Below are positions 1 through 13,056 of a DNA stretch of 21,719 nt, piece after piece. The stretch spans positions 1-21,719 of the forward strand of contig JBHLPF010000042.1 in assembly GCA_048939765.1 (NCBI GenBank), written 5' to 3'. Within the stretch, counting starts at the first letter, position 1, and every line of letters begins with the position of its first letter. Position numbers and translations under genes: made by a program. This DNA comes from Promethearchaeota archaeon (GTDB lineage Archaea > Asgardarchaeota > Thorarchaeia > Thorarchaeales > Thorarchaeaceae). The notes under the pieces were generated by a model. That model worked only from the letters and a program-made list of their open reading frames with translations, was not told where the DNA came from and did no database searches.

Positions 1-3000
1 AATAGAACACTATCATACTCGCGAATTACGATGGCTGTGATTTCCTGTATCGAGCCTAAATCACATCTGGCATCAGACACTGAGTAGCTCAATACACGCA
101 GCCGGTCCCAGATCACGATATCGAGATCGTTGGTGCTAATCACAGTGATCCCATAAGTATCTCCACCTGCTGAATCCACGGTATAAGCCCTTGCACCGAC
201 AACCCCTTGCTGGAAGACTGTGTCATTAAGATTCAGTGTTCCATCATAGGGTGTACCATCGTAGTCATAAATTGCCGACGCAGAAACAGAAGCGACTGCT
301 CCCACATCTATTCGATGATCAATGGTAGAGATGGAAACTGTCAGAGAATCCCAAACACAGGACACTATCATATTCTGTCTAATCGCCGAGATGCCAAAGG
401 AGTCTCCAAAGGCAGAATCAACGGTATAGCCTCGACGTCCAGCTGAGGCTTGTTGAAAGATTGTATCATTTAGTTGAAGAGTCCCATCATATGAGGAACC
501 ATCGTAGTCATAGATAGCTGTTGGGACAACAGACGCGATGGTTTCTATATCGATTCTATTATCGCCTACTGTGATGGTGATAGTTAGCGAATCCCAGATA
601 ATCCCCTGAGTCTGTGAGTTCTGGTTTACTGCTGTTATATCGTATTGATTCACTGAGGTAGACACTGTGTCATATGTAACGAGTTGAGCAACATTTCGAG
701 TTTCAGCAAAATCCCAGACTCCACTGGACCCTGAGTAGGTGGCACTGATGCCATTTATCCAAACAGATCCGTCGATGACAAAGGAATCGTCAAAGTCGTA
801 GATTAGAGTGACATTGCAGGAACACCCAGCATTAATGTCAATCCTTGAATCCTCAGTTGAATAGGAAATGACCACTATCTGATCCCATATTATCGTAGTA
901 TTGGATGTAGTAGCAACCCATTGCGTGAGGCCATAGACCAACTCAGAGGCTATAACAACATGATATCCGATTCTTTGTACTGATGCAGAGGTCTCCTGGT
1001 AACGCCATCGAGTAGCCCCAGCATCCCATGCTAGAATCTTGGAACCATTGAGTGCAGCAGAAAAGCCCTTTGTAATATCTATCTCAATCCCGTCATACTG
1101 GTATCGTGCCTTCCACCAAGTTTCACCTACTGAATTCGTATCGATTCGCCCATCGACAATCCCAGATTGGTAGAACTCTATTCGGTCCCATACTACATCC
1201 TGGGATTTTAAATTCAAGTTCAGTAGGGTGATACCGTATGTATTCTCAAAGGCATTGGAGCTGTTTACATAATACCGCCACGAACCAACTTCTGACCTAA
1301 ACGGTTGATATTCGAAGTGGTCAATACTCCAACTCATCACATTGTTGTCCATGTAGAGAGTGTCGTCCGCGCCCAGTGGATGATTATCAAATTCAAGCAC
1401 AGCGGTCACGACTATTTCAGCTGATGATGCATAGTCAACACGGTCATCAGTAGTTGAGGTGGTCAGAATTAGAATTCGATCCCAGACCACATCCGTCGAA
1501 AGGACAACAGGGTTCAGAGAAGAAATCCCATGGGTCACTTCATTGGCCAAAGTCGAATTAACATAAAACTTCCAGAGACCGACTGCAATCCTAGAGGTCT
1601 GATACTCAAAATGGTCAGTGTTCCAACTCATTAGAGTGTCATCTAGGTAGAGTGTATCACTCGCAGTCAACATGTGGCCATCAAACTCGAGTTGTGCAGT
1701 GACAGATATCGTAACTGTGGTGCCAAGATTCACTCGATTGTCATCCGCTGCGGTTGTGGTGATCTGAATACGGTCCCATATCTGTGCCACAGTATTTCCT
1801 GCTAGATTGACATATGAGATTCCATAGGTGTCTTCGAGGGCATTTGATGCATTGACAAAGAATATCCATTCGCCAACCTGAGCAAACTGTGGCTCATACT
1901 GGAAGTATGAACCGAGCCATGTCATCTGAGTGTCATTCATGTAGAGAATATCATCCGCACCGAGCAAGTAGCTATCAAACTCGAGTTGGGCGGTGACTCG
2001 AATATCAGCTTGAGTGTCATAGTCTATGCGCCCATCTTGCGTAGTCGTGGTGAGAACCAGAATCCTGTCCCAAATCTGATCGACTGATTTGCTATCGATG
2101 TTCACCAGCGAAATTCCATACGTCGCCTCGAAGGCATTAGAGGTGTTGACAAAGTAATTCCAGGAACCCACTTCATTCCTTATTGGTTGATACTGGAAGT
2201 AACCTGAACCCCATGTCATTTCGACATCATCCATGTACAAAATATCACCGGACACAAGTGGATGATTATCATACTCGAGCAGAGCTGTTACTCGGATGTC
2301 TGCCGCAGAACCGTAGTCAATTCTGTTGTCCTGTGTTGAAGTTATGGTTACTTTGATGCGGTCCCAAATGACGCTGGCAGCTTGGCTGTTGAGATTCACC
2401 AATGTTATGCCATACATTGTTTCCAATGCGCCAGTGGAGTTCACGAAGTAGTTGAGAACACCAATGATCGAATATGCACCTGTTGACAACTCAAAGTGGT
2501 CAGTACTCCAAGACATCAAGGTATCATTGGTGAAGAGAGTGTCTCCAGAACCTAGCAGATGGCCATCATATTCAAGCTCAGCTGTTACGCTAATTGTGGT
2601 GAAGATTCCATAATTGATACGGTCATCAGCCGCGGTTGTAGTGAGAATTCTGATTCTGTCCCATATAACGCTCGATTCCTTGCCATTCAGGTTCAATACC
2701 GTAATGCCATAACCGCTCATTGTGCTTGAGTTAACATAGTATGTCCACGACCCAACATCCGATTTTGACACGTCAAGCTCGAACCAAGAGTTACCGGAAT
2801 CCCATGACATGGCCTGACCCGCCAGAACGACAGCATCGCCCGAGCCAAGGAAAGTGCTATCATACTCAAGCATGAGAGTGACACGGATTTGGACAATATC
2901 ATCAACGTTGACTCTCTCATCATCAGCCGCTGTCGTTTGCACTGAAATCCTATCCCAAATGACATCCTGGAAGTTACCATTCTGATTGACTGAAGAAATT

Positions 3001-9749: not shown

Positions 9750-11102
9750 CTATTGGTCCTCGTCGTCCTCGCCAAACCGCTTTGGCGTTCCAAGACGCCG
9801 GGAGTCGTCTACCCTAAGCCTATCAGGATCAGGTGGTGCGCCATATCGTTCCACTTTAGGCTCTTCAATCTCTTCAACGACCTCCCTATCGAGGTCTTCT
9901 TCACGAATCTCTTTGCCTTCTTCTCGCTCCTCTTTCACCCGCTCAGCAACACGCTCAGTTCTCTCGAACATGACATAGTAGAGCGTGGTGAAGATTGCCA
10001 CCAGCGGGAAGGCTAGTAGCTTTGCGATATCTCGGAAGAGAAAGGTTTCGTAGATTGTGCCAGTTTCCCATTGGAACCACCCGGCCAGTATAGTTGCCCC
10101 TGTGTTGGAAACTGCAATAATGCTATCCACAAAGAAGAAGCCACTTGCGAGGAAGAAGGTGAATAGAGGGCCAAAGTCGCGGGTTCTCATACGGGTTTCT
10201 TCCACACCCTCTGTAACCGTGCGCCCTATACCACTCATAGCATAGAGCAGAAAGAACAGAGACATCGCGACATCAACGACACTCATTGTGGGAGCACCAG
10301 TTCTTCGCATCACATTAACGAAGAAGTAGCCTGAATATAGACCAATGAAAATCGTCATGAGCGCGACATTAAGTGCTGCACCCTTGCCCGCGTACCTAAA
10401 GAATGCCAGGAGTGAAACCAAAGCGAACAATCCAAGGAGTCCTGCTGCAACCCAGATAAGAACTCCGTGAATCTGTAGATTGGATATAGCTTCTGGAAAG
10501 ATCGCTGTTATTACATCGCCTAGGCCAAACATATTCTCAGGTATTAAGAAGAGAACAGCTAGAACTATGGCACCTATAATTCCAAGTCCGATGATCAATA
10601 AAAGGAAGCTTCCAATGCCGACTCCTATTCCACCTTTCTTAGGCTCTGCTATCGTGGCTAATCTGAGACTTGTCCTAGATGACAAGTAAGCCTGGAAAGC
10701 GATCCAGCCAACCCAACAGAACATGGCAAAGAACAGAAGTGCCGTTTCTCCAAGCCATATCGACAGGAACACTGAGATTGCGAATGATACAGCGAGCCAT
10801 GCGACGCCCTTGAGCTCTGTCACGCTTCCTCGCCCTCTTCGTGTTATCCATAGCCTATCGGCGCCCACTCCAATAAGTAGAGTCCCAAAGGCGAAATAGA
10901 TGGTGCCCGTGGCACCGATATATAGGAAGAAGTTCGCCAAGATGAACTCGATGTCAGTACCGGGATAGAGCGTCATGAGCCATGTCACGAGGTAGCCCAG
11001 GAAGGTTGTGAACACAAATATAATCAAATAAGCAACGTATCTTCGAGTCTTGAAGAAGACTTTCAGACCTTCAACAATTCCAGATAGTATCGGGATTCCC
11101 AT
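9750..11102 (-). CDS. Uncharacterised polytopic membrane protein (about 11 TM segments) with an acidic C-terminal tail
   Basis: 450-aa ORF with RBS GGGAGGA upstream, many hydrophobic segments and a charged tail (EEREEGKEIREEDLDREVVEEIEEP...). No family motif recognised. Confidence 0.85.
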   Translation of the reverse strand: MGIPILSGIVEGLKVFFKTRRYVAYLIIFVFTTFLGYLVTWLMTLYPGTDIEFILANFFLYIGATGTIYFAFGTLLIGVGADRLWITRRGRGSVTELKGVAWLAVSFAISVFLSIWLGETALLFFAMFCWVGWIAFQAYLSSRTSLRLATIAEPKKGGIGVGIGSFLLLIIGLGIIGAIVLAVLFLIPENMFGLGDVITAIFPEAISNLQIHGVLIWVAAGLLGLFALVSLLAFFRYAGKGAALNVALMTIFIGLYSGYFFVNVMRRTGAPTMSVVDVAMSLFFLLYAMSGIGRTVTEGVEETRMRTRDFGPLFTFFLASGFFFVDSIIAVSNTGATILAGWFQWETGTIYETFLFRDIAKLLAFPLVAIFTTLYYVMFERTERVAERVKEEREEGKEIREEDLDREVVEEIEEPKVERYGAPPDPDRLRVDDSRRLGTPKRFGEDDEDQ

Positions 11103-11140
11103 ACCTATCCTCCCTTATACAGCAACGGAAGGCTAACCCT

Positions 11141-11156
11141 GATTTTAAGGTTTGCA
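11141..11156 (-). promoter_or_regulatory. Candidate BRE/TATA promoter of the membrane protein gene
   Basis: Minus strand GCAAACC-TTAAAAT about 40 nt upstream of the ATG. Confidence 0.45.
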
Positions 11157-11280
11157 CGCATCTATTCTACGAAGGCTCATAGTCCATTTTCCCACCCACT
11201 GCTTGCTCGGATTTGATTAGCTTCTCACTGATGATTAAGTTTCAAAATGTATCTAATTAGCCAAAACCCATTACCACAGT

Positions 11281-11296
11281 AGAAGGGCTTAATAGG
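11281..11296 (+). promoter_or_regulatory. Candidate BRE/TATA promoter of the small RNA
   Basis: Purine-rich AGAAGGGC followed by TTAATAGG, centred about 25 nt before the first base of the hairpin at 11318. Confidence 0.45.
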
Positions 11297-11317
11297 TTGC
11301 ATATCGCGTAGGTATCA

Positions 11318-11438
11318 TGTGGTCAGGCAGTCAGTAGGGCCTAGTTTTCGTAACATGCCCTCATAACATAACTCCCCCCCTCCTACCACATAAGTCCTGC
11401 TGGCCCTGACCACACCTCTATTCTTCATTTCCCTTCTT
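11318..11438 (+). ncRNA. Candidate structured small RNA (about 100-120 nt), family not recognised
   Basis: UGUGGUCAGG (11318-27) pairs with CCUGACCACA (11405-14). After a CA bulge, GUCAGUAGGGC (11330-40) pairs with GUCCUGCUGGC (11394-404) using 3 G-U pairs that work only on the + strand. 53-nt C-rich loop and a pyrimidine tail at 11415-11438. Confidence 0.6.
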
Positions 11439-11471
11439 GCTCATGCATGTCCAATATCGAACGAGAAGGCG

Positions 11472-11486
11472 CACTAGTGTACACTA
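11472..11486. promoter_or_regulatory. Perfect 12-bp palindrome, candidate operator
   Basis: TAGTGTACACTA at 11475-11486 overlapping CACTAGTG at 11472-11479, about 25 nt upstream of TATA-like ATATTAAAAT (11511-11520). Confidence 0.35.
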
Positions 11487-11649
11487 AAACACAACGAAAT
11501 GCGATTCAGCATATTAAAATAGGACATCTGTCATAGTCGAGGGCTATACAGCGTGCTGCATGAAGTGCAATCTACTTCCATACAGATTGTTCTGAACATG
11601 TTTTGGAAATAATATGCACTTGTGATGCAGACTTAGGAGAGAGAATTAA

Positions 11650-13056
11650 ATGGAAACGCGACAAGTGGCCGCCATAATTCTCATCGTCGTGGTTGTTGCC
11701 GGCGTGGGCATTGGAATCTATTACTTCATGCCACAAGCCCCAGAACCACCATACGGTGAACTGGTGGTGGCACAATTAGTCACACCTGGCGCTCCAGCTG
11801 GAGTTGCGAGCGACCACATAATAAAAGTGGGAATCCTCGGACCCTTGACCGAGATCCAAGGTATTGGCCATTGGAGAGGAGCCTATATGGCTTGTGACGA
11901 GCTGAACACTGCAGGCGGCGTAACAATAGACGGGGAAGCGTACTATTTTGGCATCATTGCCGAAGACACGTTTGAGGCTGAAACCAGTCTTGACCCATCC
12001 AAAGGAGTGACCGCAGCACAGAGAATCCTTACTACCGATGGCGCCCAATTCACCCTAGGGGGATTCAGAACTGAAGGGGTAGACGCCTATCTGCCAACGA
12101 TAATGGCTGCTAAGAAGCTGTTTATGAGCTGCGGACCTGCAACAGACCTATTCACTACCTATGTGAATGACTCGTATGATACGTACAAGTATTACTTCAA
12201 GGTCACCCCAATAAACTCCACAGCGCTAGGAGGCGAGATACTTCATTTCCTGGCCGCACTCAAGCCAATCATGGAGGGTGCGCTAGGAAAGAACATATCC
12301 CAAGTCGCAATCATTCGCGAGGATCTTGCATGGACAATACCACTTAGTGGAGCCATCAACGCCTACTTGGGTTATTTCGGGTACAATAAGACAATAGAGA
12401 TAGCGTACCCCCTTGCACAATCAGCATCATCATCATCATTCGCCGGATATTGGCAGCAGATTCAAGATTCTGGAGCACAGATCACAATTCCCATTATTTC
12501 CGCACAAGGTGGGATTACACTGGTAACCCAGTATAAGGCGCTTGAACCGGGGTGCCTTATTGCAGGCATTGATGTCCAGTCACAGCTGCCCAATTACTGG
12601 AATGAAACCAGTGGTGCCTGTGAGCATGAGATCGAACTCCAGACAATGCACCGCACCAATAAGACTACAAAGTCAATAGCAATGTGGGACAGTTTCCTTG
12701 ACCACTTCGACGGAGACGAACCACTCTATACGGCCGTCGGCGCCTATGATGCGATGTATCTGTTGCACAAAGGAATCAATGATGCACAGTCTCTGAACTC
12801 CACAGATGTTATACCTTACCTTGAAGCCATAACATTCAAAAATCCGTTCGAAGGTGTAGGGGCTACCTTTGCTTACACTTACACCCACGACACCTTTGAA
12901 GGCTACATCGGTAACACTATCTATAGTGTGGGACTGTTCTGCCAATGGCAAGCAGGAGGAGTCAAGGAAGTCGTCACAACTGGAGGAGCTGTGTATCCGA
13001 ATTGGCTCGCGACAGCAGATATTACATTTCCATCTTGGGGCATCAATGACGAATAG
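11650..13056 (+). CDS. ABC transporter substrate-binding protein, LivK/LivJ-like (HAAT family), N-terminal TM anchor
   Basis: IKVGILGPLTE, MACDELNTAGGV, FTLGGFRTE and GAYDAMYLL resemble the periplasmic binding protein type I family. RBS AGGAG upstream, adjacent to liv permeases, several N-glycosylation sequons. Confidence 0.9.
   Translation: METRQVAAIILIVVVVAGVGIGIYYFMPQAPEPPYGELVVAQLVTPGAPAGVASDHIIKVGILGPLTEIQGIGHWRGAYMACDELNTAGGVTIDGEAYYFGIIAEDTFEAETSLDPSKGVTAAQRILTTDGAQFTLGGFRTEGVDAYLPTIMAAKKLFMSCGPATDLFTTYVNDSYDTYKYYFKVTPINSTALGGEILHFLAALKPIMEGALGKNISQVAIIREDLAWTIPLSGAINAYLGYFGYNKTIEIAYPLAQSASSSSFAGYWQQIQDSGAQITIPIISAQGGITLVTQYKALEPGCLIAGIDVQSQLPNYWNETSGACEHEIELQTMHRTNKTTKSIAMWDSFLDHFDGDEPLYTAVGAYDAMYLLHKGINDAQSLNSTDVIPYLEAITFKNPFEGVGATFAYTYTHDTFEGYIGNTIYSVGLFCQWQAGGVKEVVTTGGAVYPNWLATADITFPSWGINDE

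Follow-up and report, generated by a model that had tools for sequence, protein, structure and literature searches.

When the window (the whole 21,719-nt stretch of contig JBHLPF010000042.1 that was analysed, from a Promethearchaeota archaeon of the class Thorarchaeia) was compared with related genomes, positions 11318-11418 of the plus strand were recognized, on the evidence of sequence comparison, as a gene for a structured non-coding RNA of about 100-115 nt with its own BRE/TATA promoter. The gene belongs to an RNA family that comprises at least three old classes of paralogs (A, B and C), and is placed in subfamily C. In this class-wide, multi-copy small RNA family, strong covariation is found together with fixed promoters and a single-stranded core of extreme conservation. 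The family is absent from Rfam, and no description of such an RNA was found in the literature searched; the small RNA gene is conserved and hitherto undescribed. Asgard archaea are the closest prokaryotic relatives of eukaryotes and, to our knowledge, almost nothing is known about their regulatory RNAs. The RNA offers a concrete entry point into post-transcriptional control in Thorarchaeota and could also serve as a marker RNA for the class.

Architecture and covariation of the RNA

The RNA gene is located between two divergent open reading frames (minus strand, 9750-11102; plus strand, 11650-13056), so no gene ends at this locus. The minus-strand frame encodes a membrane-like protein of 450 aa with a hydrophobic N-terminus. 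No Pfam or NCBIfam match was obtained for this protein; in several genera its gene is conserved next to class C copies, in divergent orientation. The plus-strand frame encodes a Peripla_BP_6 binding protein (SBP) and heads a branched-chain amino-acid ABC transporter operon. The distance from the RNA to the SBP start is 232 nt, on the same strand.

All parts of the RNA gene are on the plus strand. The promoter as a whole (11281-11296) includes a BRE-like purine-rich AGAAGGG (11281-11287) and the TATA box TTAATA (11289-11294), which is found 29 nt 5' of the stem. Transcription is predicted to start at 11317-11319, about 26 nt 3' of the TATA centre. The outer helix consists of the 5' arm UGUGGUCAGG (11318-11327) and the 3' arm CCUGACCACA (11405-11414), which form a perfect 10-nt inverted repeat. 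In the folded RNA, a 2-nt bulge, CA (11328-11329), separates this helix from the inner helix, in which the 5' arm GUCAGUAGGGC (11330-11340) forms 11 bp with the 3' arm GUCCUGCUGGC (11394-11404). Three pairs of the inner helix are G-U (11331-11403, 11335-11399 and 11339-11395). The closing stem therefore has a total of 21 bp (10 + 11 bp), and both 3' arms are supported by sequence, folding and covariation.

The apical loop of 53 nt (11341-11393) is unpaired in both the MFE and the centroid folds and holds the conserved core. It contains UAACAU twice (11351 and 11364), CAUAA three times (11362, 11367 and 11389) and CUCCCCCCCUCCU at 11372-11384. In the core as a whole, two C-rich stretches hardly vary, ACAUGCCCUCA and CUCCCCCC(C)UCCUACCA. 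Motif 1 (ACAUGCCCUCA, 11353-11363) is invariant in alignment A2, and ACAUGCCCUCA and CCCCCUCCUACCA are at least 98% identical over 98 copies from GTDB species representatives, in which the C run varies from 5 to 8. Motif 2 (CUCCCCCCCUCCUACCA, 11372-11388) is anti-Shine-Dalgarno-like and has CCUCCUA in common with the 3' end of 16S rRNA. The stem is followed by a conserved 3' tail, CCUC (11415-11418; ACCUC when A11414 is counted), and by a pyrimidine- and T-rich tract up to 11437, which is the probable termination zone.

On the plus strand the region folded at -33.3 kcal/mol (z = -4.3) into exactly the 21-bp stem and the 53-nt loop; the minus-strand fold was unremarkable (z = -0.8). We consider comparative evidence, not fold energy, to be decisive for a structure beyond chance. 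When 39 class B and C copies were aligned with MAFFT, which is blind to structure, RNAalifold returned a closing stem of 19 pairs, and compensatory double changes were observed in 16 of them. The proportion of paired cells in this alignment was 92%, compared with 36-48% when the partners were slid by 1-3 columns, and not one of the five observed values was attained in 500 shuffles. A second alignment drew on GTDB species representatives for 95 distinct copies and included classes A, B and C; in it, 93.5% of the cells were paired and all of the pairs (19/19) were compensatory. This alignment was fitted to the covariance model and thus leans toward the structure; the MAFFT result is free of such bias. 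Helix 1 was 95.5% paired with compensatory changes in 9/9 pairs, and helix 2 showed compensatory changes in 10/10 modelled pairs. Many stem pairs are G-U, and since these would become A-C mismatches in the opposite strand, the structure exists in plus-strand RNA only.

At the place of the CA bulge, type B paralogs have two single bulged G. An additional hairpin inside the loop (GUAA/UUAC and UUUCGU/ACGAAA) was not supported (70% paired, covariation below that of the shuffles). Some lineages carry hairpins inserted in the loop, either between CGUA and ACAUG (site 1; copies L045, L051, L054, L055 and L062) or in the linker between both C-rich motifs (site 2; genus g15); L098, L099 and L103 carry such hairpins as well. 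Since these lineage-specific hairpins are inserted at two fixed places, the two positions appear to be free of constraint.

Family members, promoters and genomic neighbours

When the genome of the window was searched at the DNA level, two more places matching the loop only were found, giving three paralogs in total. Both other paralogs form long end-to-end helices (z = -3.8 and -4.6) with unrelated stem sequences around the same core. The core of the family (ACAUGCCCUCA ... CCCCCUCCUACC within a covarying end-to-end helix) is present in exact form at 11353-11387 of the window. Three classes are distinguished by their linkers, namely class A (AAUUACGAAAC), class B (UAAC) and class C (UUACAUAAC-like), and the window copy belongs to class C.

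The exact pattern ACATGCCCTCA-N(2-16)-CCCCCTCCTACC was found in 81 of the 87 genomes of the class with 1-7 matches each, and the reversed control pattern gave 0 matches. Covariance model R1 detected the RNA in all of the sampled genomes of family f1 (26/26; 1-9 copies per genome). It also gave a weak match of 29.8 bits in the one genome of sister family f2 (1/1) and no match in the 123 genomes from 25 other Asgard families. Positions 11316-11420 scored 92.6 bits with this model, in whose seed the window copy was included, and independent copies behaved alike. Among the matches listed in a GTDB-wide scan with the exact pattern, the records were titled Thorarchaeota, Promethearchaeota or uncultured archaeon, plus one Hermodarchaeota. 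No exact core match was found in viral contigs. As judged from these searches, virtually every Thorarchaeia genome searched carries the family, and none of the other Asgard lineages sampled does.

Several individual copies are unusual. L146 (JBHLLF010000039.1) has an exact core in a MAG labelled Candidatus Hermodarchaeota and represents either a labelling difference or a copy outside Thorarchaeia. Copies L046 (G015:C119:~49120-49226), L048 and L013 (G007:C2) keep the core and the 3' arm and have no matching 5' arm; they look like decayed or 5'-truncated duplicates. In genome G007, three near-identical class C cores are located near contig ends (C2:1008, C16:867 and C52:7).

MAG contigs often start or end inside the RNA gene (e.g. 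G046:C13:1-68, G047:C7:1-68, G043:C224:1-90 and G065:C157:1-76), and short metagenome contigs (unitigs) from four public runs break at 11334, 11364 and 11391, at the conserved core. The shared invariant core acts as an assembly-breaking repeat, so that Thorarchaeota MAG contigs often break there. The conserved RNA core thereby accounts for a practical nuisance in the assembly of these genomes.

When the intergenic region was aligned within the genus, only three conserved islands were observed: the promoter of the upstream divergent gene (11142-11156), the RNA with its TATA block, and the TATA block of the SBP gene. The second island consists of GAAG..CTTAATAGG (11282-11296), which is the sole conserved block 5' of the RNA, a variable 22-nt spacer, and positions 11319-11418, with conservation beginning at G11319. 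Within the genus, the RNA shares about 84-92% identity, compared with 70-80% for the flanking coding ends. Conservation extends through CCACACCUC to 11418 and then collapses.

In 38/50 class C and 21/31 class B copies, the first paired base is preceded at a distance of 27-30 nt by the start of a TATA-like hexamer. For types B and C, the family mode is at -29/-28, and TTAATA of the window is at -29. The fixed position of the TATA box (-27 to -30) places the transcription start at the foot of the stem. In all three classes, ACCU is found directly after the stem, followed by 40-60% T over the next 15 nt or so. Clear T4+ runs were observed in a minority of the copies and most copies are without a clear T5+ terminator, so the position given for the 3' end of the RNA is a prediction and uncertain.

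Many class A copies (L003, L022, L023, L025 and L028) have an extra 5' hairpin, e.g. CAGGUAGGUGUGGG...ACCUG. In the copies with this hairpin the TATA box is located 47-58 nt before the main stem, and class A RNAs are thus probably longer than those of classes B and C. Parts of the class A 5' extension are able to pair with the CACCU tail.

Gene neighbours are specific to each class and are retained across genera. Class A is flanked by a radical-SAM gene (38/68) and a PhzF-like gene (27/68), one on each side. Class B is divergent from an OsmC-like gene (23/30). Class C is divergent from the 450-aa protein of the window in 14/41 cases and downstream of a PAS histidine kinase in 11/41. The downstream genes are otherwise unrelated and some of them are convergent.

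Rfam 15 gave 0 matches at gathering scores for the whole window and 0 matches at E <= 10 with permissive filters for 11050-11700 on both strands. Nothing was found in a tRNA/tmRNA scan. Some other readings were considered and rejected. An intrinsic terminator does not agree with divergent flanking genes and a loop of 53 nt, and the terminator scan was empty at this locus on the plus strand. A match to a bacterial sigma-70 promoter (11289-11318) is the archaeal TATA box read with the wrong model. Small ORFs (a 37-aa minus-strand frame at 11315-11428 and frames through AUG-CCC-UCA) do not stay open among the copies: the C run (5-8) and the linker change in length by numbers of nucleotides that are not multiples of 3, and orthologs differ by two separate 1-nt indels. 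A conserved small ORF is thereby excluded on both strands.

Much of this had been proposed in the first-pass annotation, which was made from the letters of the window alone. The 21-bp stem with its 2-nt bulge and G-U pairs, the 53-nt loop and the repeats were borne out by sequence, folding and a repeat finder. Of the BRE/TATA-like element that it placed upstream of the RNA, the TATA box recurs at a conserved position in classes B and C. It was also right that the region is divergent and not a gene terminator, as the orientation of the flanking genes indicates, and that the structure is strand-specific (G-U pairs in the stem; z = -0.8 on the minus strand). Its suggestion of an unannotated, stand-alone small RNA gene with an archaeal promoter of its own is upheld by the conserved TATA position, the stem covariation and the synteny of the classes. 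The covarying homologs that it had asked for in related genomes were found (81/87 genomes of the class; all 19 pairs compensatory in 95 copies), and the Rfam comparison that it advised returned no match.

Candidate functions

The paralogs may be sibling trans-acting regulatory sRNAs that use anti-Shine-Dalgarno-like motifs. We put this reading forward tentatively, as the likeliest and the most economical one, with a probability slightly short of even. The stem would protect both ends of the RNA and present the loop. The loop and the tail would offer up to three anti-Shine-Dalgarno-like motifs (CCCUCA, CCUCCU and ACCUC), which would pair with purine-rich ribosome-binding regions of mRNAs, and initiation would be blocked or mRNA stability changed. 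Separate promoters would let different signals feed the same seed.

The 16S rRNA of the window genome ends with GGAUCACCUCCU, which is followed by AAGC (i.e. ...CACCUCCU). In the loop of the RNA, CCUCCUA sits in CCCCCCCUCCUACCA; motif 1 has CCCUCA and the tail is ACCUC. In the class A paralog L003 (G000:C87, ~1476-1490, minus strand), CACCUCCUAA is found right after the closing stem and is identical to the final 8 nt of 16S rRNA and the first 2 nt of the trailer; other genomes keep only CACCU(U/C)CU. Before long ORFs, GGAG peaks at -15 to -12, and GGAG or GAGG is present at 28% of long-ORF starts, compared with 10% of internal ATGs. With motifs that resemble the 16S 3' end, a link to translation initiation can be tested. 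Archaeal sRNAs are known to act through anti-RBS loops (M. mazei sRNA154 and sRNA41; PMC5867862), and multi-copy sRNAs with aSD-like loops are known in bacteria (the cuckoo RNAs; PMC4615179).

When the genome was searched for extended complementary sites, none longer than 11 nt was found besides the antisense strands of the RNA genes themselves and one 12-nt match. Almost all complementary 11-12-mers are antisense strands of the three RNA genes. Non-self complementary 10-mers were found at 25 places for motif 2 and at 38 places for motif 1, some of them at RBSs. The best target candidate (UGGUAGGAGGGG on contig C25, 5 nt ahead of the ATG of a gene for 211 aa of no known family) was rejected as a chance match; this 12-nt RBS match is kept in the closest relative only and is absent from 17 other orthologous loci.

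The two targets named in the first-pass annotation did not hold up either. The match of CUCCU to AGGAG of the SBP gene is not conserved, as the orthologs read GGAGAGA without UAGGAG, and the AGGAGG of the giant gene is an ordinary Shine-Dalgarno sequence carried by many genes there.

Pairing of the loop with stable RNAs was also analysed. The motif 1/23S duplex (-17.2) was slightly beyond all 30 shuffles (lowest -16.6). The other five loop pairings with 16S, 23S and SRP RNA were no better than those of shuffled loops, and the same was observed for 18 tRNAs (aragorn). The invariance of the loop is wider than the 5-6 nt that Shine-Dalgarno pairing needs, as it includes ACAUG and UACCA and amounts to 11 + 13 fixed positions. 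Such invariance beyond the Shine-Dalgarno complement is explained by one conserved partner, be it protein or RNA, no less well than by many mRNAs.

As the main rival reading, it is possible, if rather unlikely, that the RNA is instead a protein-binding RNA (a decoy, sponge or RNP scaffold), in which a sealed helix carries invariant single-stranded C-rich segments as a putative binding site. Candidate partners are a KH-type binder of poly(C) or of the 16S 3' end, or another factor of ribosome biogenesis or initiation; the RNA, as a mimic of the 3' tail of 16S rRNA, would titrate or carry this partner. Across the class and the three old paralog classes, invariance of at least 98% is seen at about 24 loop positions, including the flanks that are not C-rich (ACAUG and UACCA), and bulged nucleotides are found at a conserved place of the stem. 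The identity of the loop CCUCCUA with the 16S 3' end, and of the class A CACCUCCUAA with the 16S end plus 2 nt, agrees with such mimicry. The lack of a conserved RNA target, and of convincing complementarity to rRNA, SRP RNA or tRNAs (motif 1/23S being marginally beyond the shuffles), also points toward a protein. However, the neighbours (radical SAM, PhzF, OsmC, histidine kinase and the membrane-like protein) do not include a conserved RNA-binding protein and no TROVE match was obtained. Moreover, multi-target base-pairing sRNAs can have long invariant seeds too. Searches for La and Vault proteins, both run without a positive control, gave no match.

A narrower proposal, which we regard as quite improbable, is that the RNA would be a subunit or decoy of a Thorarchaeia-specific RNP that mimics the single-stranded 16S rRNA 3' tail, and not an mRNA-pairing regulator. 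Up to three anti-Shine-Dalgarno-like sites would be shown on a nuclease-protected helix, and the particle would sequester or deliver a conserved initiation or small-subunit-maturation factor, setting global translation capacity. If true, it would be an Asgard counterpart of eukaryotic small cytoplasmic RNPs (Y, vault and 7SL-like). The remainder of the probability, outside the sRNA and protein-decoy readings, is spread over other roles.

A cis-acting leader or riboswitch of the branched-chain amino-acid SBP/ABC transporter operon is very unlikely and has already been largely refuted. The RNA lies upstream of the SBP start on the same strand, and a P1-like closed stem around a conserved core is the usual layout of a riboswitch. 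However, a conserved TATA block (ATTAAAATAG, 11513-11522, the third island of the genus alignment) belongs to the SBP gene itself and is located 3' of the RNA, and the sequence between the RNA and this block is not conserved. In G063, a genome of the same genus, synteny breaks at ~11424, directly after the RNA, and the interval up to the SBP gene is taken up by about 2 kb of other DNA (G063:C16 ~19953-22091 compared with 11424-11475 of the window). Furthermore, other copies precede unrelated genes or face convergent ones, no association with one gene class was observed, and Rfam gave no match.

The SBP leader itself has a further feature. The TATA block of the operon is located about 130 nt before the ATG, which implies a leader of about 100 nt. 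An 18-nt imperfect inverted repeat (11563-11580 / 11604-11621) lies just before the RBS and could form a separate cis-regulatory hairpin (11563-11621).

A Y RNA-like component of a Ro60-type RNA quality-control particle, an analogy drawn in the first-pass annotation, is likewise very unlikely. The end-to-end closed stem, the bulge and the pyrimidine-rich loop are shared with Y RNAs, but these features are generic and insufficient for membership. The analogy fails on the protein side, as TROVE/Ro60 (PF05731) gave no match at E <= 0.01 in the window genome (88.5% complete), with positive results for the Deinococcus and Bacteroides controls. No Rfam Y RNA or other family was matched, even at E <= 10.

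A MITE, or a dispersed repeat of another kind, with terminal inverted repeats that only resemble a stem, which the first-pass annotation had named as the alternative, is the least probable of all: inverted terminal arms, several dispersed copies per genome, many MAG contigs that break inside the element and a few 5'-truncated copies would suit it, but we regard it as already refuted by the conservation pattern, in which the arms differ among copies and the interior is conserved (the opposite of a MITE), and it also disagrees with the low copy number (3 in the window genome and 1-9 elsewhere), RNA-specific pairing through G-U pairs, gene neighbours kept by each subfamily across genera, a promoter at a fixed distance, and the absence of flanking direct repeats or a target-site duplication at the element.

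Comparison with known RNA families

Y RNAs, with a total of about 100 nt, have a pyrimidine-rich loop closed by a long bulged helix of the 5' and 3' ends, and the Thorarchaeal RNA has the same layout. However, the conserved part of Y RNAs is the lower stem, whereas that of the Thorarchaeal RNA is the loop, and neither Ro60/TROVE in the genome nor an Rfam match was found for it. In RoxS/RsaE of Firmicutes, unpaired C-rich regions are the seeds against G-rich Shine-Dalgarno regions and are highly conserved across the order. Unlike the Thorarchaeal RNA, RoxS/RsaE are bacterial, consist of short hairpins with a Rho-independent terminator and have no end-to-end closing helix, and no sequence relationship was observed.

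The cuckoo RNAs of Alphaproteobacteria (RSs0680a-d/CcsR and SmelC397/ar14) are likewise multi-copy paralogous sRNAs, with variable stems, an invariant C-rich aSD-like loop motif (CCUCCUCCC), several motifs per RNA and subsets with preserved genomic context (PMC4615179). At the time of the family's definition, it was not yet clear what they do (PMC4615179). In contrast to the Thorarchaeal RNA, they are bacterial, consist of 2-4 adjacent short hairpins with a motif in each loop, are bound by Hfq and are partly co-transcribed with the upstream gene (PMC4615179). The Thorarchaeal RNA is archaeal and has a single long end-to-end helix, one loop of 45-55 nt and its own TATA promoter. Its motifs (ACAUGCCCUCA and CCCCCCUCCUACCA) differ from the cuckoo motif, and the two families are unrelated in sequence and in Rfam. 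CCUCCUCCC does not occur in 11318-11418, and adjacent hairpins were not found in this region.

M. mazei sRNA154 (loop 2) and sRNA41 are archaeal intergenic sRNAs with exposed anti-RBS loops (PMC5867862), which mask ribosome-binding sites so that translation is repressed (PMC5867862). They are restricted to Methanosarcina, have two stem-loops and have experimentally shown targets (PMC5867862), whereas the Thorarchaeal RNA belongs to an Asgard class; no homology between them was detectable. Although it is a member of neither group, as architecture, motifs and taxon differ, the Thorarchaeal RNA would, by analogy, work most like the cuckoo/CcsR RNAs and the anti-RBS sRNAs of M. mazei.
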